Shown: positions 1,191-15,405, numbered from the stretch's first letter. The stretch: DNA of 64,000 nt from Candidatus Falkowbacteria bacterium (GCA_018651725.1 JABIDK010000005.1:64064-128063), one strand, 5' to 3'. The notes: generated by a model from the sequence alone, not told the origin. Made by a program: numbers and translations.

Positions 1191-1620
1191 AAGGAGTTTT
1201 GGGGTAAAGGGAATTCACCCCTTTAATTCCCCTCTTCCCTTTACCCAAAACGAAAAACAAAATTAAATTCTTTTTAAAAGTGATTTGCATTCGCAAATCA
1301 AAGAAAAACATATACATCAGCTAACAACACGATATCCGGTTACGGCTCTTCCGAGAGCCTCCACCCAAATTTTCTTTCGCTCCGCTCCAGAAAACTTCGG
1401 ATATCGGTAACAGTTATACGAAATAAATTTTTTATCTATACTAGTATTTAAAATTCAATGCGTTGAACACAGCGAAAATTTGATTTTTATTTAATTAATA
1501 AGGGGTAATAAGGAATATTTTTTGTCTTTAAAAAATTCTGGTAACAGAAAAATAATATTTTAATAAGTATTAACTTTTTTTGAAATTAGCTTTAGCTATA
1601 TAAGAAAAAATAATAAAAAA
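1191..1620 (+). repeat. Intergenic repeat module M1: H1 hairpin plus conserved blocks
   Basis: It shares blocks with modules at 2752-3153, 3981-4575, 9964-10221 and 14979-15405. These are TACATCAGCTAACA..CGGTTACGGCT..GCCTCCaCCCAAATTTT (near-identical to M5), CTCCGCTCC, AAAACTTCgGATAtcGGTAACAGTTATACGAAATAAATTTTTT, and ATTAATTAATAAGGGGTAATAAGG. Confidence 0.7.
1196..1251 (+). repeat. Structured hairpin element H1, copy A. Stem GTTTTGGGGTAAAGGGAA / TTCCCTTTACCCAAAAC, 21-nt loop TTCACCCCTTTAATTCCCCTC.
   Basis: It starts 6 nt after the stop of the upstream CDS and is preceded by AAGGAG. The 5' arm is 18 nt and the 3' arm 17 nt, leaving one unpaired G in the 5' arm. The loop is identical in copies A, B and D; copy C differs at two positions. 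Confidence 0.8.
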
Positions 1621-2751
1621 ATGGAATCACTAGATAATTTCAAACAATACTCAAAAAAGGAGGCGCAAGAAAAAGGAAAAGAAATGCAGGAAAAAATTAA
1701 ATCTGGAGAAGCGAAAGACTTTAGAGAAGCAGAGCAATCTGTTGAAAAAGAGCAAAAATTTGATTTAACCATAGATCAGATCACATCTATGCAGAGCATA
1801 GAAGATCTTTTTTCTAAAAGTAAGGATGTGCATACTGAACAAAATACAAATTTTATAAAATCTCTGAAAGAGTATATTGATGACTCTTCATTGCCGCAAG
1901 ATTTAATTATTTTAATTATAGAAAAAAATATTTTAAATAATTCTAATATTACAACAGACTTTGAGTACTCTTCACCAGAATGGCTAAGTGCTATAGTTTC
2001 AAGATTAAATCCTGAGCAAAAGAAAGAGTTTATCAAAAAAAGAGTTAAACTTTCTTTGAGTGTTCCTGAGATGATTCCAAGAATGATTGAACTATATTCT
2101 GTAACAGTTGATGATTATCGAAATGAATTTTTAAATAATCTTTCATCACAAAAGTATGATGGTTTAATCAATTATAGTAAAGGATTGTCAAAAAGATATA
2201 AAGAAGTTGGAATATCCTGCTTTGATGACGCAAAAGACAGAGAAGCACGCTTACCATTTCCTTGTGATGAAAATATTTTACTAAGATTGTTCCCAGACTT
2301 TTTTAATAGTCAAGTTTCGAATTCGTTAAAAAAAATTAAAATAAAAAAAACTGCAGAAAAAAATAAAGACCTCATGGATTTTTATTTCGTAACTATGGGT
2401 GGGGGCGGAGCAAATATTTTATCTAGTAAAAAAGAGATGAATATTAAAAAGATTGATAAAACAATTGAGAGCTCTTTAAAAGAAATTAATAATATACTTA
2501 CATCAACTGGTGATATCACCAAACAAAGCGTTATAGATCAATTAACAAATCAAGCTTTTGATACTATGTTTAATAGTATGCTTGAGGGAAGAACGCTTAC
2601 TATAAATTATACTGATTCCCAGGTTAAAGCAATGAAGAATGTTATTTCTAACTTAAATACTATCCGCAATAAGTATGAACTATCAGAAATTAGACCTGAA
2701 GACATAAACAAATTAGTTGAATATTTAAAGATAAAAACTGATACCCCCTAA
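1621..2751 (+). CDS. Hypothetical Lys/Glu-rich protein (376 aa), no recognisable domain
   Basis: Long ORF between two repeat modules. It has no signal peptide or TM segment and I recognise no motifs. Confidence 0.5.
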   Translation: MESLDNFKQYSKKEAQEKGKEMQEKIKSGEAKDFREAEQSVEKEQKFDLTIDQITSMQSIEDLFSKSKDVHTEQNTNFIKSLKEYIDDSSLPQDLIILIIEKNILNNSNITTDFEYSSPEWLSAIVSRLNPEQKKEFIKKRVKLSLSVPEMIPRMIELYSVTVDDYRNEFLNNLSSQKYDGLINYSKGLSKRYKEVGISCFDDAKDREARLPFPCDENILLRLFPDFFNSQVSNSLKKIKIKKTAEKNKDLMDFYFVTMGGGGANILSSKKEMNIKKIDKTIESSLKEINNILTSTGDITKQSVIDQLTNQAFDTMFNSMLEGRTLTINYTDSQVKAMKNVISNLNTIRNKYELSEIRPEDINKLVEYLKIKTDTP

Positions 2752-3153
2752 AAATATAAGGAGTTTTGAAAAAATGGAATTCACCCCTTTAATTCCCCTC
2801 TTCCATTTTTTCAAAACAAAAAATCAAATTTTCTTTTCTAGTAGAAAAGAGTAATCGCAATTAAAACGAGATAAAAAATTTACATCGCACAACAAAGAAT
2901 ATCTGGTTCAAAATATTTAATTTTAAATTATAATAAGGATTTAAATATTACTCACCCAAATTTTATTTCGTTTCACTTAATAAAACTTCAGATATTCTTA
3001 AACGTTGTACGAAATAAATTTTTTCATTCTATTTTCTTAACAAGTATTTCCTTATAACCACGGCGAAAGTTTATTTTTTTATTAATTAAAAGGGGAAATA
3101 GGTTATTTTCTCCGCTTCGCTACGAAAATAAATTTATTAAATTAACAAAAACT
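2752..3153 (+). repeat. Intergenic repeat module M2
   Basis: Its blocks are H1, the small hairpin CTTTTCTAGTAGAAAAG, CACCCAAATTTT, AAAACTTCAGATATTCTTAAACGTTGTACGAAATAAATTTTTT, and TTATTAATTAAAAGGGGAAATAGGTTATTTTCTCCGCTTCGCTACGAAAATAAATTTATT. The last block is nearly identical to 10128-10195. Confidence 0.7.
2773..2827 (+). repeat. Structured hairpin element H1, copy B. Stem GTTTTGAAAAAATGGAA / TTCCATTTTTTCAAAAC, same 21-nt loop.
   Basis: The 17-bp stem is perfect and completely different in sequence from copy A, but fully compensatory. The loop TTCACCCCTTTAATTCCCCTC is identical. Confidence 0.8.
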
Positions 3154-3624
3154 ATGTCACAAATTGAAATTATTGAACACAAAAATCACAAATTCATGTT
3201 CTTGGATGATTATCTTTGGATGTGGGACACACCACAAGAAAAAGAGTTACAAGAAGATTTAGCCAAACAAGCATATGGGGATGTGTTAATCGCAGGATAC
3301 GGATTTGGTATTTTATCAAAATACGCCCTAGATAACAAAAATATAAAAACAGTCAACACTGTTGAAAAATATCAAATTGTTATTGATAAAATGAAAGAGT
3401 TTGGTCACATATATGGAGATATAACTATTAACGATTACTATGATTTGCCAGAAGAAAAAAAATATGATTGTATTATTGGCGATATATGGCCAGACATTGA
3501 CGCAAAATTTTTAGATGATTATATCAAATTTAAAAATAAATCTAATCAAATATTAAAAAAAGGCGGAAAATTATTGGCTTGGGGAGGTGATTACTACGAA
3601 TATTTGATTAATTCAAAAAAATAA
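3154..3624 (+). CDS. Short spermidine-synthase-like class I MTase-fold protein (156 aa)
   Basis: VLIAGYGFGILSKYAL..VNTVEKYQIVID resembles the aminopropyltransferase motif I (VL.IGGGDGG..E..VE.D..Vi). DCIIGD resembles the D-V-I-I-V-D segment. It sits immediately upstream of speH with a 2-nt gap. It is too short for a canonical SpeE. Confidence 0.45.
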   Translation: MSQIEIIEHKNHKFMFLDDYLWMWDTPQEKELQEDLAKQAYGDVLIAGYGFGILSKYALDNKNIKTVNTVEKYQIVIDKMKEFGHIYGDITINDYYDLPEEKKYDCIIGDIWPDIDAKFLDDYIKFKNKSNQILKKGGKLLAWGGDYYEYLINSKK

Positions 3625-3626
3625 TT

Positions 3627-3980
3627 ATGAAAAACGGAACACATTTATTAGTTGATATAAAAAATTGCAAAAAAATAAAAGAGTTGTCTGATACTAAAGT
3701 TATCACCTCTTTCCTTGTTAAACTAATCAAATTAGCAAAAATGAAAGCCATAACAGAGCCAAAGGTAATGTATTATGAACACGAAGATAAAATTGAAAGT
3801 GGTATTACCGGTTTTGTAATCATCGCGGATAGTCATGTGAGCATTCACACATATCCTTTAAAAAAATCATTTTACCTCGACCTATTCTCTTGTAAAAAAT
3901 TTAATGAAAAAGAAATAATTAAATACACAAATGAATTTTTTGGAGGCAAAAAAATAAAAAGCCAACTTATCAAAAGATAG
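3627..3980 (+). CDS. speH: S-adenosylmethionine decarboxylase proenzyme, pyruvoyl-dependent class 1b (SpeH/SpeD-like)
   Basis: G-HLLVD..C ... GITGFVIIADSHVSIHTYP ... YLDLFSCKKF matches the small AdoMetDC signature (G.TG.v.l.ESHisIHTwPE ... D.F.C), including the Ser of the self-cleavage site. Confidence 0.8.
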   Translation: MKNGTHLLVDIKNCKKIKELSDTKVITSFLVKLIKLAKMKAITEPKVMYYEHEDKIESGITGFVIIADSHVSIHTYPLKKSFYLDLFSCKKFNEKEIIKYTNEFFGGKKIKSQLIKR

Positions 3981-6640: not shown

Positions 6641-7408
6641 ATGAAAAATAGATTAAAAACATTATTATGGGGATTATCTTCGTTTATTGTAATTATAATT
6701 ATCTGGGGTCTCTTTACTTATACAAGAATAATCAAACCTTTTTTTCTGCCAACGCCGACTGAAGTTTTAATTGCATTATTTGATTTATTTACCAAGTATA
6801 ATTTTATTGAAGATGTTTCTATTAGTGTTTTCAGGATTTTAACAGGCTTCATTATTGCCGTTATTATGGCAATCCCTGTTGGTGTCTCCATAGGGTTAAG
6901 CAAAAAATTTCAATCATTTATAGAACCAATCATTGATTTTATTCGTTATACTCCAATTCCTGCATTTATTCCTCTTCTAATCCTTTGGTTTGGTATTGGA
7001 GAATTAGAAAAAATCATCGTCATCGTATTAGCAGTATTTTTCCAATTAGTATTAATGGTGTCTAATTCAATTTCTCATGTGCCAAAAGACATTATAGAAT
7101 TCGCTAAAACCTTAGGAGTAAATAAAAAAGAACTTATTACTAAAGTTATTTATCAACATGCTAAACCTAGAATTTTTGATGATCTAAGAGTTTCAATGGG
7201 TTGGGCATGGGCTGGTTTAATGATTGCAGAAATTGTCGGAGCAACTTCGGGTATTGGTTTTGTTATTATTCAATCTCAAAGATTATTAAGAACAGAAAAT
7301 GTTATTTCCGCAATTATAATTGTCGGCCTGTTAGGGTTAATAACTGATTTTGTATTTAAAATTGCCTATAAGAAACTTTATCCTTGGGCAGAAAAAGAAA
7401 CACAATGA
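6641..7408 (+). CDS. ABC transporter permease (SsuC/TauC-type inner membrane component)
   Basis: About six TM helices. The binding-protein-dependent transport permease signature region is present. Confidence 0.75.
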   Translation: MKNRLKTLLWGLSSFIVIIIIWGLFTYTRIIKPFFLPTPTEVLIALFDLFTKYNFIEDVSISVFRILTGFIIAVIMAIPVGVSIGLSKKFQSFIEPIIDFIRYTPIPAFIPLLILWFGIGELEKIIVIVLAVFFQLVLMVSNSISHVPKDIIEFAKTLGVNKKELITKVIYQHAKPRIFDDLRVSMGWAWAGLMIAEIVGATSGIGFVIIQSQRLLRTENVISAIIIVGLLGLITDFVFKIAYKKLYPWAEKETQ

Positions 7409-9101: not shown

Positions 9102-9414
9102 TATTCTAGTCTGCTACGCAGAATTTATATTAAGAAAAGTAAGAGAAAAACTACAGAGGCACCTAAAGTAGAGGCAGTGTAAAAACTCTCTTCGTTCCCT
9201 TCGGTCACTACGAGCCACGCTACGCTCTCACTTCGTTCGGGTCAGATAACAGGGCTTATGCGGAAAATGGCTCGGCTCGCCATTTTCCCAAATTGCTCCG
9301 CTTCGCTACGCAACTTCGCATAAGCCCGATGTTATATAAAATGGCCTAAATCGGCCTCATCATATAACAAGTTGTATCTAGCTACGCCAGTAAAATAAAA
9401 ATTAACTCTTTAAT
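9091..9414 (+). repeat. Intergenic repeat module M4a (variant without H1)
   Basis: It contains the nested inverted repeats GGGCTTATGCG...CGCATAAGCCC (11 bp) and AAAATGGC...GCCATTTT. It also has CTCCGCTTCGCTACG, CCCAAATT and CACTTCGTTC blocks shared with the other modules. Confidence 0.6.
9386..9414. repeat. 29-bp perfect inverted repeat, left copy (GCCAGTAAAATAAAAATTAACTCTTTAAT), ending at the ATG of the enclosed ORF
   Basis: Exact reverse complement of 9959-9987. Confidence 0.9.
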
Positions 9415-9963
9415 ATGTTTTTAAAAATTTATCTTTACATTTTATTATCTTTGTTAATACTTTTTGTTTTACATTTTTTCTTTAAATGGCAAATTCGTAA
9501 AATTATGATGCGCTCAGTTGCCAATAAGCTTGGATTGAAATATATCCCCAAAACAACCAAACCTGCTAGCAAGGAAGAGCTGCAAGAGGTGCCAGACATA
9601 CTCACAGATTCAAGTGAAAAAATTAGAAATCTAATTGAGGGTATGTACAATGGAAAAAGTATAATAATATATGAAAGACAAGTCGTCTCAGGCGCCGGTC
9701 CATACACACAACAAGCCACAACAAAAATGTTAAATATAATTATTGACGACAATAAAATTCTTGTTATTAATTGCAGCGAAATCTTGTTTCCTCTGCCTGG
9801 CAAAATAATTAAATTCATTAACGATTATATTGAAAATGGCCAGCTGCCAAAAACTAAAAAAATGAACAGCGCTTTACTGTTGGTTATTTTGATATTCACA
9901 ATCTTGCCCACAATTATAATACTTGGAATAATAGCTTTAAAATTGGATGAAGCGTTATATTAA
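9415..9963 (+). CDS. Small membrane protein (182 aa), N- and C-terminal TM helices, unknown function
   Basis: The ORF fills exactly the space between the two 29-bp inverted repeats. It has hydrophobic N- and C-termini. Confidence 0.5.
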   Translation: MFLKIYLYILLSLLILFVLHFFFKWQIRKIMMRSVANKLGLKYIPKTTKPASKEELQEVPDILTDSSEKIRNLIEGMYNGKSIIIYERQVVSGAGPYTQQATTKMLNIIIDDNKILVINCSEILFPLPGKIIKFINDYIENGQLPKTKKMNSALLLVILIFTILPTIIILGIIALKLDEALY

Positions 9964-9987
9964 AGAGTTAATTTTTATTTTACTGGC
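9959..9987. repeat. 29-bp perfect inverted repeat, right copy (ATTAAAGAGTTAATTTTTATTTTACTGGC), beginning inside the stop codon
   Basis: Exact reverse complement of 9386-9414. Confidence 0.9.
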
Positions 9988-10221
9988 TTCGCCCAAATTT
10001 TCAAAATGAATATTAATTACAATAAGAAATTTTGAAAACTTTAGATACAACTAAACGTTAGCTGAAATATTCCTTTTCTTTTTCGGGCTATCGCCCTAAT
10101 TGTTTTAAAAAATTTTCAAATTTCTTTTTTATTAATTAAAGAGGGGAAATAAGGTGTTTTCTCCGCTCCGCTCCGAAAACGATTTATTTATAGGGGAAAA
10201 CGAATACAATACAAAACATCA
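9964..10221 (+). repeat. Intergenic repeat module M4b
   Basis: Its blocks are CGCCCAAATTTTC, AAACTTTAGATAcaactaAACGTTAgctGAAATA, and TTATTAATTAAAGAGGGGAAATAAGGTGTTTTCTCCGCTCCGCTCCGAAAACGATTTATTTA. The last block is about 85 percent identical to the M2 3' block. Confidence 0.65.
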
Positions 10222-11307
10222 ATGTCAAAAATTATGGCAAAATCTTCAAATTCAAATTTTCATAGAGCGGCCAAAGCAAAAAATGATGAGTTTTATACTC
10301 AGCTTATTGATATCGAAAAAGAACTGAAACATTACAAAGACCAATTTCGTAACAAAGTAGTCCACTGTAATTGCGATGATCCATTTGAGAGCAACTTTTT
10401 TAAATATTTTGCCGCCAATTTCAAAACGCTCGAATTAAAAAGACTTATTGCAACTAGCTATAAGCCGTCTCCGATCGCAAATACACAACTTAGTTTATTC
10501 GGTGATGATAAAACACTCAAGCCCAAAAAGGGTCGCCCAAAAGTGAATGCAAACAAGTTTATCATCAACGATGTTGGCGATCTGGATGGCGACGGCGCTT
10601 TTGATTTGAAAGACGTCGCGGAACAGCTAAAGGTAAACAAAAACAACGAGTGGTTGCCGCTTGAAGGTGAAGGAGATTTTAGAAGTCCAGAAAGCATAGA
10701 GTTGCTTAAGCAGGCGGATATTGTGGTAACCAACCCGCCGTTTTCGCTCTTTCGGGAATATGTAAATCAGCTAGTTGAGTATAAGAAGCAGTTCTTGATT
10801 ATCGGCAATGACAATGCGAGAACATACGTGAATATTTTTGAACTGATACAAAAAAATAAAATTTGGGCAGGATATGGAAAGGTAAAGGAATTTATACAGC
10901 CCGACGGATCAATAAAAGGATTTGGTAATGTCGGATGGTATACGAATCTTGATGTAGCGAAGCGACATGAATCCTTAACGCTCTATAAAAAATATTCCCC
11001 AAAAGAATATCCTAAGTACGCAAATTATGATGCAATAGAAGTTAGCAAGGTTACTGATATACCTATTGATTATGACGGCGAGATGGGTGTACCGATTTCA
11101 TTTCTAGATAAATACAACCCGGAACAATTTAAAATTGTTGGGTCAAGTAGTAATCTATCAGAACCCATCAAAACAAAAGATGGTTTAGTCTACCGATATA
11201 AAGACCGTAACGGATATATGCGTCAAGCGGCAAATGAACGTTTTGCTCTTCCCGACGGTGACACTTGGCGACGCATTTATGACAGAATTGTAATTAGAAA
11301 AAAATAA
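10222..11307 (+). CDS. N6-adenine DNA methyltransferase, EcoRI-methylase-like family
   Basis: N-terminal AKAKNDEFYTQ (DEFYT signature). Catalytic motif DIVVTNPPFS (NPPF). Confidence 0.65.
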   Translation: MSKIMAKSSNSNFHRAAKAKNDEFYTQLIDIEKELKHYKDQFRNKVVHCNCDDPFESNFFKYFAANFKTLELKRLIATSYKPSPIANTQLSLFGDDKTLKPKKGRPKVNANKFIINDVGDLDGDGAFDLKDVAEQLKVNKNNEWLPLEGEGDFRSPESIELLKQADIVVTNPPFSLFREYVNQLVEYKKQFLIIGNDNARTYVNIFELIQKNKIWAGYGKVKEFIQPDGSIKGFGNVGWYTNLDVAKRHESLTLYKKYSPKEYPKYANYDAIEVSKVTDIPIDYDGEMGVPISFLDKYNPEQFKIVGSSSNLSEPIKTKDGLVYRYKDRNGYMRQAANERFALPDGDTWRRIYDRIVIRKK

Positions 11308-11308
11308 T

Positions 11309-12439
11309 ATGAAAATTGAACTAAACAACATCAAAGTACGTGAAGTATTCAACGGATACAAAGATAGTGACGAGGAAGGCGTTGTCGCATATGACGGTAA
11401 TCTTGATATTCGTCCAAAATACCAGCGCGAATTCGTGTATAAGCCAGAACAACGCAATCAAGTTATTAAAACTATTCTGCGTGGCTATCCAGACAGCGAC
11501 GCATATTTCCCACTTAATACAATGTACTGGCTTAAGACTGATGATAATCATTTTGAGATTATTGATGGTCAACAGCGTACGCTCTCAATCTGTCAATATA
11601 TAAATGGTGATTTCAGTATTGATGAGAAATACTTTCATAGCTTGAACAAAACGGAACAGGAGTATATTTTGGAATATCCCTTGCAAGTGTATATCTGCAC
11701 AGGAAGCGATAAAGAGCGGCTTGAATGGTTTGAAGTAATCAACACTGCTGGCGAAGTTTTAACACCTCAAGAACTACGCAACGCAAACTATACTGGCGAG
11801 TGGCTCACCGACGCAAAGCGATGGTTTTCTAAAAGTGGCGCACCTGCGTATCAAATTGGTCAAGATTATGTCAAAGGCTCACCTATCCGCCAAGAATTTT
11901 TGGAAAAGGTATTAAAATGGATATCTGCACGCGACTACGGTGAAGAAAATCCTGCTGAGTACATGTCTAAACATCAGCATGATAAAAATGCCAACGAATT
12001 GTGGGAGTACTTTCAGGGCGTAATTGAATGGGTGCAAGAAACATTCCCGAATTACCGCAAAGAAATGGCAAGTGTAAACTGGGGCGAGTTATACAATCAA
12101 TTCAAAGACAAAAAACTAAACGCAGAAAAACTTGAGGAAGAAATCTCAAAATTGATGCAAGACGAAGATGTCAGCAGCAAGCCTGGTATTTATCCTTATG
12201 CACTCACGAGACAAGAAAAATACCTATCTATCCGCGCATTTAATGACAAAATGAAGCGCGAGGCGTACGAGAAGCAAAAAGGAATTTGCCCGCTATGTAA
12301 AGCCAAAGATAAAAAACGCTTAGATATTTCTGACATGGAAGCCGACCATATCACCCCTTGGCATGAAGGAGGCAAAACTGTTTCAGAAAATTGCCAAATG
12401 CTGTGCAAACAATGCAATAGAACTAAATCTGGAAAATAA
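11309..12439 (+). CDS. DUF262 (ParB-like, DGQQR motif) domain fused to a C-terminal HNH endonuclease domain
   Basis: N-terminal FEIIDGQQRTLSI. C-terminal CPLC...EADHITPWHEGGKTVSENCQMLCKQCNRTKS, the canonical HNH zinc-finger nuclease motif. There is a 1-nt gap after the MTase gene. Confidence 0.7.
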   Translation: MKIELNNIKVREVFNGYKDSDEEGVVAYDGNLDIRPKYQREFVYKPEQRNQVIKTILRGYPDSDAYFPLNTMYWLKTDDNHFEIIDGQQRTLSICQYINGDFSIDEKYFHSLNKTEQEYILEYPLQVYICTGSDKERLEWFEVINTAGEVLTPQELRNANYTGEWLTDAKRWFSKSGAPAYQIGQDYVKGSPIRQEFLEKVLKWISARDYGEENPAEYMSKHQHDKNANELWEYFQGVIEWVQETFPNYRKEMASVNWGELYNQFKDKKLNAEKLEEEISKLMQDEDVSSKPGIYPYALTRQEKYLSIRAFNDKMKREAYEKQKGICPLCKAKDKKRLDISDMEADHITPWHEGGKTVSENCQMLCKQCNRTKSGK

Positions 12440-12605
12440 AAATTAAAGACAATTATGAATAGTTTGCTTGCAGAAATAAATAATGAAATCACGCCTGAAC
12501 AGAAAAAAATTTCTGAGGCTATTGATATTAAAAAATCAGAAGAAGAGATAATTTCCGATTTAATAGAAAATGATATTGTTTCTTTTGACCTTAAGGAAAA
12601 AACGG

Positions 12606-14978
12606 ATGATCAAAAAACTTAAAACAATCAATAATATTTTTTCCTATTCCTTTTTCGAGTGGGATACCATTAACCCTGTTAAGGGGGTTAACCCCAATGA
12701 TCCGATAGATATTTTTAAAAAGAATAATATTCTTTTTGCAGAAAATGGGAATGGAAAAACAAATCTGATTAATCTTCTCAAGGTGTTGAATGGTGTTGAT
12801 TCAATTAAACTTGAAAAACACTGGGATTACCCCACGGAAAATCAAAATGTTGTTTTGGAGCTTGATAATGAACTATCCTTTAATTCTGGAAATTGGAGCG
12901 AAATAAATGGATCGTTACAAGATAAGTTTGTTATCTTTGATAAGTATTTTACGGAAAAATATGTTCATTCCGTGGGATTAGATCATCACAATACAGCACA
13001 GAGAAAACAGGAAAGAGGCAAGCACATTATTTACCTGGGGAATTTTACTGAATATAATCAAGAAATAAATAAAATTAATAGACTTAAAAATGAAGTAAGC
13101 GAAAAAAACAGTGCATTTTGGACTGCTGAACAAGATAAAATAAGCAACATACTTCCTGAGTGGCTAGACATTACCAAGATTGATAGTGAGAAAAATATTA
13201 TAAAAAACATTGACCCCTTAAGTCTTTCTAGCAAGCAACAGACATTGGAAAATCAAAAAAAGAATCTTGAAAAAGTCATAAACGCCATTAAAAATCAATC
13301 CGAAATAGAGAAACTAAAAAACTTAGATGATATAAAAACGGTTTTTGATTTTAAAATTAAAGAATTTGATAAGAACGGTAAAAAAACGGTTTATCAACTT
13401 GACCCCGCCAAATTATTTAATTTTACCGTTTCCAAGGGCGTTAAGCAGACTTTATCGAAAATAAGCAATAAAAAGTCTTTTATCAAAACAGGATTGAACT
13501 TGGTTGACGATACTACGGAAGATTGCCCATTCTGCGAACAGAAAATTAAAAATGGCGAACTTATTCAAATTGTAAAAGATTACCAAAATATTTTTGATCA
13601 AACATTTTTAGATGAGGAAAGTAAAGTAAAAAACCGCTTACAGAAATATAAGACTGTTTTATCAAGTTTGAAAGATCTTCAGTCAATATCTTCTAATGTT
13701 ACAAGTTTACAGGAAGCTCAAAAATATGTAGGTGTTGATATTTCAATCCCAAATTGTTCTTTGGGCGAGGAAGACAAAAAAATAATTGAGTTAGAAATTC
13801 AACGCGTTATTGATAAAGAAAAAAATATTTTAAATCCGGTAACTGGTAGTACATTTGAACAAATCAAGAATATGGTTGATAGGGCAAATGCTTTAAAAAA
13901 GAGCTACAACAACGCTGTAGATAAAATAAACGAAAAAATAAATGAGCTTAAAAAGGTTGCAAGCGAAGGCAAGCTTGATGAAAGAAAAACAGAGATTGAA
14001 AATACAATCAGAGAGTTAGAAAAAAGCATCCTATATATTAATCATCAGAAAGATTTTTTGCGATATTTTAATGCCAAAAATCATAATAACCAAAATAAAA
14101 AAGTTATTGAGAATCTTGAAGCAATCTATCAAAAACTTAAAGAAAAAATAGTTGAAAAATTTAACAAGTTCGCAAATGAATATTTTGAGTTGATAAAGCA
14201 TTATGTAAAAATAATAAGCCCATCAATGGAAATATTTGATGTTTTAGGGAAAGGCACATACTCAAGAACCGGTCGTGAGCCTGCGCAATGCGGTTTTGAA
14301 GTTCAATACAACAAAAAGGATTGTACAAATGATCTTAGCGAAGGCGAAAGACAAGTTATCGCGCTTGCATTTTTCTTTGCTCAATTAAAAAAAGAGATAA
14401 GCAAAGATAAAATAATAATTTTAGATGACCCTATTACATCGTTTGACGCTGGAAAAAGAAAATCTACTGCAGAAGTAATTAAATCCGAGACGCAGAAATT
14501 CGATCAGTTATTCGTGTTTACTTGCGACCCTCTTTTTCGTGAGTTTTGCTTGAAAGAAATTCCAAATAGAAATTTTTACTATATTTTTATTACAAAAAAA
14601 TCTTCATCAATACATTATGTCCCCAAAAATCGAGAAACAATATATCAATCATTTGAGGAAGATTTTAAGAACATCGGAAATATCAATGGTTCAAATGAAA
14701 ATGTTGTTATTTACGGACAAAAGTTAAGGTTTTGTTTGGAAACGAAAATCAAGGAGGACTATTTTGGTTATTCACAAGATAATCTTTCAAATATGATTGA
14801 GCAGGTGGTAGAAAAAGGTAATCAAAAATTCAAAAACCTTATCGACAATAAGGAAACAATTTTGAATTTATATAATTATTGCAATACTGGCGGATTGGCA
14901 CATTACCCAAAAGACGGTTCAACAAGTTGGAACGAATTAAACAGCAAAGTACAAGAGTATTTAAATTTAAATTTATAA
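12606..14978 (+). CDS. PrrC/RloC-like ABC-type ATPase (AAA_13-like) with coiled-coil CxxC zinc-hook and an uncharacterised C-terminal domain
   Basis: Walker A LFAENGNGKTNLINLL. Long Lys/Glu-rich coiled coil containing EDCPFCEQ (CxxC). ABC signature LSEGERQVIALAFF, Walker B IIILDDPITSFD. The C-terminal about 180 aa contains LRFCLE (R-x3-E) followed by a distal His. The start is placed at the MIKKLKTINN Met with upstream AAGGAAAA; the track start at 12570 would add 12 aa. Confidence 0.6.
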   Translation: MIKKLKTINNIFSYSFFEWDTINPVKGVNPNDPIDIFKKNNILFAENGNGKTNLINLLKVLNGVDSIKLEKHWDYPTENQNVVLELDNELSFNSGNWSEINGSLQDKFVIFDKYFTEKYVHSVGLDHHNTAQRKQERGKHIIYLGNFTEYNQEINKINRLKNEVSEKNSAFWTAEQDKISNILPEWLDITKIDSEKNIIKNIDPLSLSSKQQTLENQKKNLEKVINAIKNQSEIEKLKNLDDIKTVFDFKIKEFDKNGKKTVYQLDPAKLFNFTVSKGVKQTLSKISNKKSFIKTGLNLVDDTTEDCPFCEQKIKNGELIQIVKDYQNIFDQTFLDEESKVKNRLQKYKTVLSSLKDLQSISSNVTSLQEAQKYVGVDISIPNCSLGEEDKKIIELEIQRVIDKEKNILNPVTGSTFEQIKNMVDRANALKKSYNNAVDKINEKINELKKVASEGKLDERKTEIENTIRELEKSILYINHQKDFLRYFNAKNHNNQNKKVIENLEAIYQKLKEKIVEKFNKFANEYFELIKHYVKIISPSMEIFDVLGKGTYSRTGREPAQCGFEVQYNKKDCTNDLSEGERQVIALAFFFAQLKKEISKDKIIILDDPITSFDAGKRKSTAEVIKSETQKFDQLFVFTCDPLFREFCLKEIPNRNFYYIFITKKSSSIHYVPKNRETIYQSFEEDFKNIGNINGSNENVVIYGQKLRFCLETKIKEDYFGYSQDNLSNMIEQVVEKGNQKFKNLIDNKETILNLYNYCNTGGLAHYPKDGSTSWNELNSKVQEYLNLNL

Positions 14979-15405
14979 TAATGAGTTTAAGGGCAAGGGG
15001 AATTCACCCCTTTAATTCCCCTCTTCCCCTTGCCCTTAAACAGAAAAAGAAATTTGAAAATTTTTTAAAACAAGTTTTCTTTCAGAAAACAAAAGAAAAG
15101 GAATACATCAGCTAACAGCGTATAACAGGCTACGGCTTCCCTATCGGTAAGCCTCCGCCCAAATTTTAAATTATTTCTTTGTTGTTGCTCCGCAAAATTA
15201 TAACAAAGAAATAATTTAAAACTTCTGTTATACGCATATGTTGTCCAAAATGCCTTCGCTCCACTGCGTCATTTCGGACAACAGTGGTTATCTGAAATTT
15301 CCTTCCGCCAAAACCCCTTCGGGGATTGGCTTCAGAAAACTTCAGATAACCGCGAGGCGTTATACAAAATAATAAAATTAATCTTATTAACTTAACATAA
15401 AACAT
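14979..15405 (+). repeat. Intergenic repeat module M5
   Basis: Its blocks are H1, the small hairpin GTTTTCTTTCAGAAAAC (a compensatory C/G swap relative to M2 and M3), TACATCAGCTAACAGCG...GGCTACGGCTTCC...GCCTCCGCCCAAATTTT, the arms GGTTATCTGAAATTTCC ... GAAAACTTCAGATAACC around CCCCTTCGGGG (a UUCG loop), and CGCTCCACTGCG. Confidence 0.7.
14985..15041 (+). repeat. Structured hairpin element H1, copy D. Stem GTTTAAGGGCAAGGGGAA / TTCCCCTTGCCCTTAAAC, same 21-nt loop.
   Basis: The 18-bp stem is perfect and again different but compensatory. The loop is identical to copies A and B. Confidence 0.8.

Follow-up and report, generated by a model that had tools for sequence, protein, structure and literature searches.

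A 64,000-nucleotide (nt) stretch of DNA from Candidatus Falkowbacteria bacterium (GCA_018651725.1 JABIDK010000005.1:64064-128063), here called the window, carries four tightly packed genes on its plus strand (positions 10222-14978), which are likely to form a two-tier defence operon, that is, a Type II restriction-modification (R-M) pair followed by a portable "guard" cassette of a small protein and an RloC-type protein. The first gene (10222-11307, 361 amino acids (aa)) encodes a predicted N6-adenine DNA methyltransferase (MTase) of the EcoRI-methylase family, the presumed modification subunit of the pair, and the second (11309-12439, 376 aa) a DUF262(GmrSD_N)-HNH nuclease, its presumed restriction subunit. 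They are followed by an open reading frame (ORF) for an acidic 55-aa protein (12455-12622, isoelectric point (pI) 4.25), the putative translationally coupled partner of the fourth gene product, an RloC-family ABC ATPase and predicted anticodon nuclease (12606-14978, 790 aa). MTase and nuclease genes are 1 nt apart and nuclease gene and small ORF 15 nt, while small ORF and ATPase gene overlap by 17 nt, so that the ribosome-binding site (RBS) and the ATG of the ATPase fall within the 3' end of the small ORF.

Translation recovered every ORF and motif described in an earlier note on this DNA where that note had placed it. Its 1-nt gap was likewise found, but the second gap, given as about 130 nt, is occupied by the 55-aa ORF, and of the two ATPase lengths that it mentioned, family comparison favors 790 aa, from a conserved MIKK at 12606, and not 802 aa, from the alternative start at 12570. 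The association of a Type II R-M pair with an RloC-family cassette is known in principle (PrrC; rlo genes; HEPN-R-M linkages), and HEPN ATPases of the PrrC/RloC type that are linked to R-M operons have already been described (PMC2610378, PMC3710099). Undescribed, as far as we found, are three features of a clade centered on the candidate phyla radiation (CPR): a constant small acidic partner, the loss of the linchpin His and the habitual attachment to R-M operons of any type. The interest of the locus lies in the small partner protein and not in the three-gene combination.

The neighborhoods of ATPase relatives, obtained from protein look-ups and a scan of a genome collection, comprised 17 loci after dereplication. 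In all 17, a homologue of the small ORF with 48-59 aa is located directly 5' of the ATPase start and overlaps it wherever gene calls exist (the start of the small ORF is uncertain in L019 and L012); it corresponds to what the earlier note had listed as a possible acidic ORF. Further upstream, the loci differ. The present Type II pair is found in two of them (the window and L021, a Saccharibacteria metagenome-assembled genome (MAG)), RE_AlwI and an N6_N4 MTase, with or without RadC-Dam, in two (L006/L007, L015/L043), Type I hsdM/S/R or an HsdR-like protein with an M-S fusion in five (P0017 locus, L010/L016, L012, L024, L017), a PLD-SNF2 helicase with an Eco57I/TaqI_C MTase in two (L014, L042), an HTH-N6_N4 MTase with an unknown 375-aa protein in one (L018), and non-R-M genes or divergently transcribed phage-type MTases in the remaining five (L008/L009, L019, L023, L025, L026). 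Hence in 12 of the 17 loci the cassette closes an R-M operon at its 3' end, on the same strand and 2-65 nt behind the last R-M gene or in short overlap with it, and the type of R-M system is not conserved.

The variation of the upstream R-M genes across the 17 loci, combined with the constancy of the small ORF, is the mark of modularity. As judged from these comparisons, the conserved unit is the small ORF together with the ATPase gene, a separately mobile pair, and not a three-gene system; the pair appears to have been inserted without a promoter at the 3' ends of R-M operons and to be co-transcribed with them. At the DNA level, 86%-identical homology begins at 12451 (L020, just before the small ORF) or at 12497 (L007, inside it) and ends at 14977. 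The ATPase of the window is 87% identical to that of the AlwI-linked locus L007, and the ATPase of L021 is 74% identical to that of the AlwI-linked locus L015, whereas the window and L021 proteins share only 49%. Because both have their nearer counterpart in an AlwI-linked ATPase and not in each other, the combination of this R-M pair with the ATPase must have arisen at least twice, independently.

A divergent RloC-type ATPase

RloC proteins have been defined by ABC motifs, a coiled-coil insert with a CxxC motif, a length of 658-897 aa and the triad Arg-x3-Glu-x36-52-His, often with a Ser before the His (PMC2610378). The window ATPase has the ABC motifs, a coiled-coil insert with CPFC and a length of 790 aa, within this range, while its triad, R708-x3-E712-x53-H766, has a wider spacing than the published one and an Ala before the His. 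The Walker A motif AENGNGKT (12738-12761) was placed by alignment and translation, and the ABC signature LSEGERQ with the Walker B/D-loop IIILDDPITSFD (14334-14432) is conserved in the family; further motifs read by translation are IIILDDP, RFCLE (aa 708-712) and LAH (H766). An alignment of 23 family members has no variation in the CPFC zinc hook at the apex of the insert (aa 307-310, 13524-13535) or in R708, E712 and H766, and conservation along the protein is highest over the C-terminal 120 residues. The C-terminus thus does carry conserved nuclease-like residues, the lack of which the earlier note had named as a point that would speak against its interpretation of the three genes.

An RloC-like protein that has a zinc hook together with an R-x3-E...H arrangement is also what the earlier note had seen in the ATPase, and profile searches bear this out. 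The Pfam model AAA_13 matched residues 47-748 (7e-34; model positions 13-668 of 713), and of the PADLOC models for PDC-S06, the best, PDLC04895, matched residues 13-748 (4.6e-29); PDC-S06 is a candidate system, and the publications mentioning it report no experiment on it. The databases label the identical 790-aa protein "AAA family ATPase" (NCBI, under Candidatus Falkowbacteria, so that the host belongs to the CPR) and "wobble nucleotide-excising tRNase" (IMG/JGI). For comparison, a canonical RloC-like set was taken from genome-derived proteins that fit the published pattern (PMC2610378), standing in for the Geobacillus kaustophilus and Acinetobacter baylyi prototypes and for E. coli PrrC. 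Distant relatives found in the genome scan (Brucella/Ochrobactrum, Paracoccaceae, Flavobacteriales, Marinifilum, Dehalococcoidia; 758-785 aa) fit the definition closely, with ARNGTGKS, CPFC, FTHS or FTHN, and NAIRxVLEA-x37/38-LSHG. Between the ATPase family and six canonical RloC-like proteins, hhalign gave a probability of 99.85% (E 1.4e-30) over 416 columns, with GQKLRFCLET over GNAIRxVLEA, and hence R-x3-E on R-x3-E, and FTCD over FTHS.

The architecture that the earlier note had proposed to look for by structure prediction is present in the AlphaFold (AF2) model (predicted local distance difference test (pLDDT) 76.6), which shows an ABC head in two parts, CPFC in the loop between long antiparallel helices, and an all-alpha, HEPN-like C-terminal domain (14628-14975) that contains R708-x3-E712 (14727-14741) and H766 (14901-14903). 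The C-terminal domain has the all-alpha four-helix core of the HEPN superfamily (PMC3710099), and its structural matches (8xdj 7.3; 1wwp 7.2; 1jog 7.2; 5yep 6.9; 7ae2 6.8; Csx1 6.7; 2hsb 6.6; LAS1L 6.6; LsoA 5.8; Csm6 5.7; sacsin 5.7) agree with the published assignment of PrrC's and RloC's nuclease domains to HEPN (PMC3710099). With respect to the HEPN motif Rx4-6H, the residue six positions before the invariant H766 is an invariant Asn (N760), and the invariant Arg, R708, is on another helix. On the basis of sequence and predicted fold, the ATPase is best described as a protein of the RloC family, which we take to be COG4694, with a Rad50-like head, a hooked coiled coil and a HEPN-like C-terminal domain. 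A scan of viral contigs yielded no members of the ATPase family.

Alternatively, the ATPase might be no anticodon nuclease but a DNA sensor similar to Rad50 or Lamassu. Its C-terminal helical domain would then bind or cleave another target (mRNA, rRNA) or none at all, or it would team up with the HNH nuclease in an action on DNA. The best PDB matches of the whole model by Foldseek are Rad50, the heads of SMC, cohesin and condensin, and Lamassu LmuB, matches that we also count among the evidence for the RloC family, and a PDB sequence search returned Rad50 heads only, with no solved structure of RloC or PrrC. Set beside the HEPN-like fold, the invariant R708, E712 and H766 and the hhalign match to canonical RloC-like proteins, this alternative seems rather improbable to us.

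Within the RloC family, the clade of the window protein nevertheless stands apart. It shares with RloC a length of about 790 aa, an ABC head interrupted by a CPxC-hooked coiled coil and a C-terminal R-x3-E...H, but the linchpin His of the RloC definition (PMC2610378), common to RloC and PrrC, is replaced by Cys640 in the switch region FTCDP (14517-14531), as placed by alignment. All 14 intact locus-derived ATPases have T-C-D at this position, and in the family alignment a single member departs from C640, with a Ser, whereas T/S-H is found in relatives that are more distant. When 1.84 billion representatives were scanned in full with HMMER, 1351 relatives were retrieved at E<=1e-10, and the combination of T-C-D, R[FY]C[LIV]E and LAH, the last two mostly 49-55 residues apart, was confined to the top-scoring tight group, which is made up of fragments and 12 representatives of full length; T-H-H/T-H-D or S-H-D characterizes the groups that follow. 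At 50% identity, the T-C-D clade amounts to about 20 clusters. The clade further differs from canonical RloC in the Glu-His spacing (49-53 in most members, 53 in the window, versus 37-38), in LAH instead of LSH, in an acidic coupled ORF of 48-59 aa that is always present, as opposed to none in the six canonical loci examined, and in its usual attachment to R-M operons (12 of 17 loci), whereas RloC is reported to be rarely R-M-linked (PMC2610378, PMC3458546). In the inspected loci, the loss of the His coincides with the presence of the small ORF. Given Cys in place of His, the ATP-hydrolysis step may differ from that of GkaRloC.

PrrC-EcoprrI resembles the locus in its concept, a second defensive line formed by a HEPN-type tRNA nuclease that is latent, has an ABC ATPase domain and is encoded within an R-M operon. 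However, PrrC has 341-416 aa, lacks a coiled coil and hook and is always linked to Type Ic systems, in which it is silenced by physical association with the Type Ic enzyme, while the R-M systems of the window clade are of any type; identity with PrrC is ruled out by the 790 aa, the coiled coil with its hook and the Type II pair upstream. Lamassu (LmuB, LmuC, LmuA) and PARIS (the ABC ATPase AriA and the tRNA nuclease AriB) are similar in that an ATPase sensor, Rad50/SMC-like in Lamassu, controls a nuclease effector; Lamassu has, in addition, a small accessory subunit of the ATPase, and PARIS is triggered by an anti-restriction protein and ends in tRNA cleavage. In the window protein, by contrast, a single chain comprises both sensor and effector, and the accessory protein of about 55 aa is unrelated in sequence. 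The locus contains no AriB homologue, and Lamassu was rejected because matches to the LmuB hidden Markov model were weak (1e-10 and weaker) and neighbors similar to LmuA or LmuC are lacking.

The ATPase frame of three loci is either split or cut short (L017 4761-7200, L020 390-2118, L022 1775-3825), which might reflect pseudogenes or sequencing frameshifts and would be consistent with the inactivation of a toxic gene.

The small acidic gene

The small ORF is retained even in loci with ATPases that are only 35-42% identical. Thirteen of the 16 members have a pI of 4.05-4.8, and they follow the rough pattern MTLIELIKNgLkeEDKkI..lDf.KsddEII.d.I..g.LNF, succeeded by an acidic tail. In five independent pairs, the ratio of nonsynonymous to synonymous substitution rates (dN/dS) is 0.2-0.4 for the small ORF, compared with 0.10-0.15 for the ATPase. 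Because of this ratio, the acidity and the conserved hydrophobic pattern, the small ORF is read as a real gene under purifying selection that appears to be weaker than the selection on the ATPase.

It might be argued that the ORF is instead a leader without a protein function, which would set a low, coupled translation of a toxic ATPase. Several observations would agree with this view, namely the overlap with the RBS and start codon of the ATPase, an evolution several-fold faster than that of the ATPase, the lack of any column that is invariant across all 16 members, and the low-expression signals that have been noted upstream of rloC genes (PMC2610378). Nevertheless, a mere leader is unlikely, given not only the dN/dS values but also that length, acidity and a hydrophobic heptad-like pattern persist down to the most divergent of these ATPases, and that the family profile, run against 5.8 billion protein clusters, found 19 proteins at E<=1e-3 and recovered family members at 1e-6 to 1e-14. 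Two newly retrieved members were examined, and both again have an R-M operon before them and an AAA_13 gene after them.

Scans of all 16 members against Pfam and PHROGs gave no shared family, NCBI labels the protein only as hypothetical, and a description of a small acidic partner protein was not found in the literature. Upstream of the ATPase genes in the six canonical RloC-like loci, no small ORF is conserved. In one further locus, BTkBrkrF on a JGI contig (P0215), a 75-aa ORF of the GYF_2 family (1115-1342) overlaps the ATPase start (1339-3750) by 4 nt; this ATPase is a more distant RloC-like protein of the intermediate T-H-H group that has retained the linchpin His, and its upstream ORF is a different one. 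From this single locus, it may be that small coupled partners are more general among RloC-like proteins.

The restriction-modification pair

The earlier note had described the first gene product as an EcoRI-like MTase and the second as a combination of DUF262 and HNH, in accordance with the domain searches. The MTase matches Pfam EcoRI_methylase (9e-125) and the PADLOC model MTase_II (PDLC03297, 6e-107), and has DEFYT at aa 22-26 and NPPF at aa 171-174. The nuclease matches GmrSD_N (9e-19), with DGQQR at aa 86-90 (11564-11578), and HNH (PF01844, 2e-12), with the zinc-finger motif CPLC...DHITPWH...CKQCN at 12287-12418, and residues 1-376 align with positions 1-372 of the PADLOC restriction endonuclease model REase_II (PDLC03418, 1e-127).

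The nuclease belongs to a very large, well-conserved family: each of the 8000 candidates that were scored proved to be a relative (E<=1e-5), and those listed are 64-89% identical, their named sources including Patescibacteria, Omnitrophota and Cyclobacteriaceae. On plasmids of Aeromonas, Macrococcoides, Chryseobacterium, Variovorax, Sulfitobacter, Gordonia and others, relatives with 49-60% identity occur; PGAP labels a "DUF262 domain-containing protein" beside an "adenine-specific methyltransferase EcoRI family protein", and in several further plasmid records the match spans both annotated genes. Six homologous loci from distant phyla and plasmids (L021, L040, L041, JGI nFzXjhIE, L126 and L127) have the MTase gene immediately 5' of the nuclease gene with a 1-nt gap or an overlap, which is the signature of a cognate pair, and in three homologue loci the gap is again 1 nt, with no AAA_13 gene following. 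Thus, the two genes are to all appearances an ordinary, widespread and autonomous Type II R-M pair, and the window copy, with the same genes, order and spacing as the MTase_II/REase_II pair of PADLOC and 49-89% identity of its nuclease to relatives in Patescibacteria, Omnitrophota and the plasmids of Aeromonas, Macrococcoides, Variovorax and Gordonia, is an ordinary member.

This bears on the proposal of the earlier note that MTase, DUF262-HNH nuclease and RloC-like ATPase form one integrated and undescribed system, for which the three genes would be obligate. The genes are tightly packed on one strand, a single 73-nt inverted repeat brackets all four of them, and the gene order recurs in the Saccharibacteria MAG L021. 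However, this is the only recurrence of the R-M/ATPase combination, which was to be checked by co-occurrence, and otherwise the genes are found apart. The M-R pair is without a downstream AAA_13 gene in all five inspected loci other than L021 (L040, L041, JGI nFzXjhIE, L126, L127), the ATPase is absent from both plasmid regions inspected, and plasmid records contain no close relative of it, the best being about 20-22% identical. Conversely, R-M systems of no fewer than five other kinds, with Type I, AlwI and PLD-SNF2/Eco57I among them, precede ATPase relatives with 52-87% identity, and the ATPase identities given above imply at least two shufflings of modules. The neighborhood data therefore largely refute the three-gene interpretation, and we regard it as very unlikely.

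The least probable of the alternatives, that the nuclease is a Type IV modification-dependent enzyme similar to GmrSD or BrxU, with the MTase an orphan or otherwise used, is hardly credible in spite of the GmrSD_N/DUF262 domain at its N-terminus and weak matches to mREase_IV and BREX/HEC-type DUF262 models, because the Type II model matches end to end whereas the best Type IV model in PADLOC reached only 3e-4, and because Type IV enzymes such as GmrSD, SspE and BrxU combine DUF262 with DUF1524 and lack a cognate MTase, while a Pfam scan found no DUF1524 in the window nuclease, whose C-terminal domain is a classical zinc-finger HNH and whose gene is paired with that of an EcoRI-family MTase. 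The nuclease is therefore better read as the predicted cognate Type II restriction enzyme than as the GmrSD/SspE-type modification sensor that the earlier note had seen in it.

In the 64-kb window, no significant avoidance was detected for GAATTC, AATT or any other palindrome. A literature search found no named Type II enzyme with a DUF262-HNH architecture, and a PDB sequence search gave only weak HNH/DUF262 matches for the nuclease and none for the MTase. At one AlwI-linked locus, a second defence set is located 3' of the guard cassette (L043 9918-13368; also L015 7010-10460), which consists of an R.EcoRI-family nuclease, an EcoRI-family MTase and an AAA_15/AAA_21 ATPase, and which in L015 is framed by a 29-nt inverted repeat (6864-6892 / 10571-10599); the EcoRI-family MTase thus pairs with two unrelated nuclease folds, DUF262-HNH and the R.EcoRI family.

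Possible mechanism and genomic setting

In the two-tier operon as we envisage it, the first module (10222-12439) would act as a barrier to foreign DNA, the MTase protecting the host DNA and the DUF262-HNH nuclease cutting unmethylated incoming DNA, possibly stimulated by nucleoside triphosphates via its ParB-like domain. The second module (12455-14978), the cassette of the small acidic protein and the divergent RloC-type protein, would serve as a back-up when restriction is insufficient: by analogy with characterized RloC proteins, head and hook could sense the DNA ends or the damage that accompany infection or restriction and turn on the HEPN domain, whereupon tRNA anticodon loops would be cut and translation would stop. 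The anticodon nuclease of GkaRloC is activated by its own DNA-dependent ATPase, with linear but not with circular DNA, and mutations in its hook short-circuit this switch and activate the nuclease (PMC3458546). Acinetobacter RloC is activated by an inducer of double-strand breaks, independently of the Type I R-M system of the host (PMC3874168). For the window clade, the linkage to structurally unrelated R-M enzymes argues against a silencing by one restriction enzyme in the style of PrrC and favors a generic trigger, such as DNA ends from restriction or phage attack, or anti-restriction factors.

ATPases of the SMC/Rad50 type usually work with small partners that bind to the head or the coiled coil. 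For this reason, and because it is always present, the small protein is the obvious candidate for a regulator, and we infer that it is a built-in regulatory subunit, either a silencer or a head-binding partner. A regulator of its own would enable the cassette to plug in behind R-M operons of any type and to be transcribed together with them. A more specific version, which is possible but on balance doubtful, is that the small protein and the His-to-Cys RloC variant constitute an unrecognized two-component "restriction guard". The 55-aa protein, for example a helix hairpin that binds to the head or coiled coil, or a DNA mimic, would be the silencer or sensor and would replace the R-M-specific silencing of PrrC, yielding a portable tRNA nuclease, and the Cys in place of the linchpin His would turn a hydrolyzing motor into a nucleotide- or redox-gated switch.

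The two-gene cassette could be of more general value. PrrC, with one Type Ic enzyme, is the only case in which the silencing of abortive-infection nucleases and the sensing of failed restriction are understood, and the silencing and trigger of RloC are still debated. With the clade, a compact two-gene model is at hand in which a generic trigger (DNA ends, nucleotide pools, anti-restriction proteins) could be told apart from one that is specific for a single R-M enzyme. The clade also shows that Patescibacteria (CPR) maintain defences in several layers in spite of their tiny genomes. When members of this clade are annotated as RloC/PDC-S06, the small gene upstream should be part of the call, with the neighboring R-M genes scored as a system of their own.

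The four-gene island is bracketed by the two arms of the 73-nt inverted repeat (10057-10129 and 15044-15116), which are 92% complementary in the outer 26 nt and 100% in the inner 30 nt; 17 nt in the center differ between the arms, each of which, by reading, forms a small hairpin of its own. None of 100 shuffles gave a comparable match, the repeat is unique within the window, and no transposase gene is located inside it. It may mark a non-autonomous mobile cassette bounded by terminal inverted repeats, or an inverted duplication of an intergenic element. Immediately 3' of the ATPase stop, a perfect hairpin with an 18-bp stem (14985-15041, plus strand), in a 150-nt region that folds at -38.9 kcal/mol (z = -5.0), is probably a terminator or an RNA stabilizer. 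In 1-kb bins, the G+C content is 0.36-0.39 in the two R-M genes, 0.30 in most of the ATPase gene and 0.30-0.34 in most neighboring bins.

The earlier note had placed the genes in a cassette of an accessory array. The flanks of about 10 kb on each side, however, consist of housekeeping genes (ABC transporter, MscS, ManC, DnaE), and no transposase, integrase or recombinase was called within them; an integron-type array with attC sites was rejected in view of these neighbors and the unique bracketing repeat. An empty site was not found, as a metagenome scan with the neighboring ABC-transporter protein gave only relatives with <=53% identity and no synteny, and Rfam and tRNA scans around the island yielded nothing relevant.

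Directly upstream of the island, a second inverted repeat of 36 nt with 94% complementarity (9381-9416 / 9957-9992) frames a neighboring 182-aa ORF (9415-9963) with hydrophobic stretches at its N- and C-terminus, so that two adjoining genes or gene sets in the window are each framed by inverted repeats of their own. The intergenic regions 9150-9380 and 15120-15400 are relatively GC-rich and contain hairpins (e.g., 15161-15224 and 15286-15351) without an Rfam match; a minus-strand 79-aa ORF at 15166-15405 is probably spurious. Both intergenic flanks have in common an 18-nt direct repeat of the CTYCGCCCAAATTTT type (9987-10004 and 15153-15170, 89% identical).

In L007, an inverted repeat of 333 nt with 100% complementarity (1795-2127 / 10452-10784) brackets R-M genes, small ORF and ATPase gene and adjoins genes for large serine recombinases, and might represent a segment that can invert or move, or else an artefact of the assembly. 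Large serine recombinase genes are located beside the R-M/guard islands of L006/L007, L008, L010 and L042 as well as beside the R-M-only island of L041, which suggests a recombinase-mediated mobility of whole defence islands.

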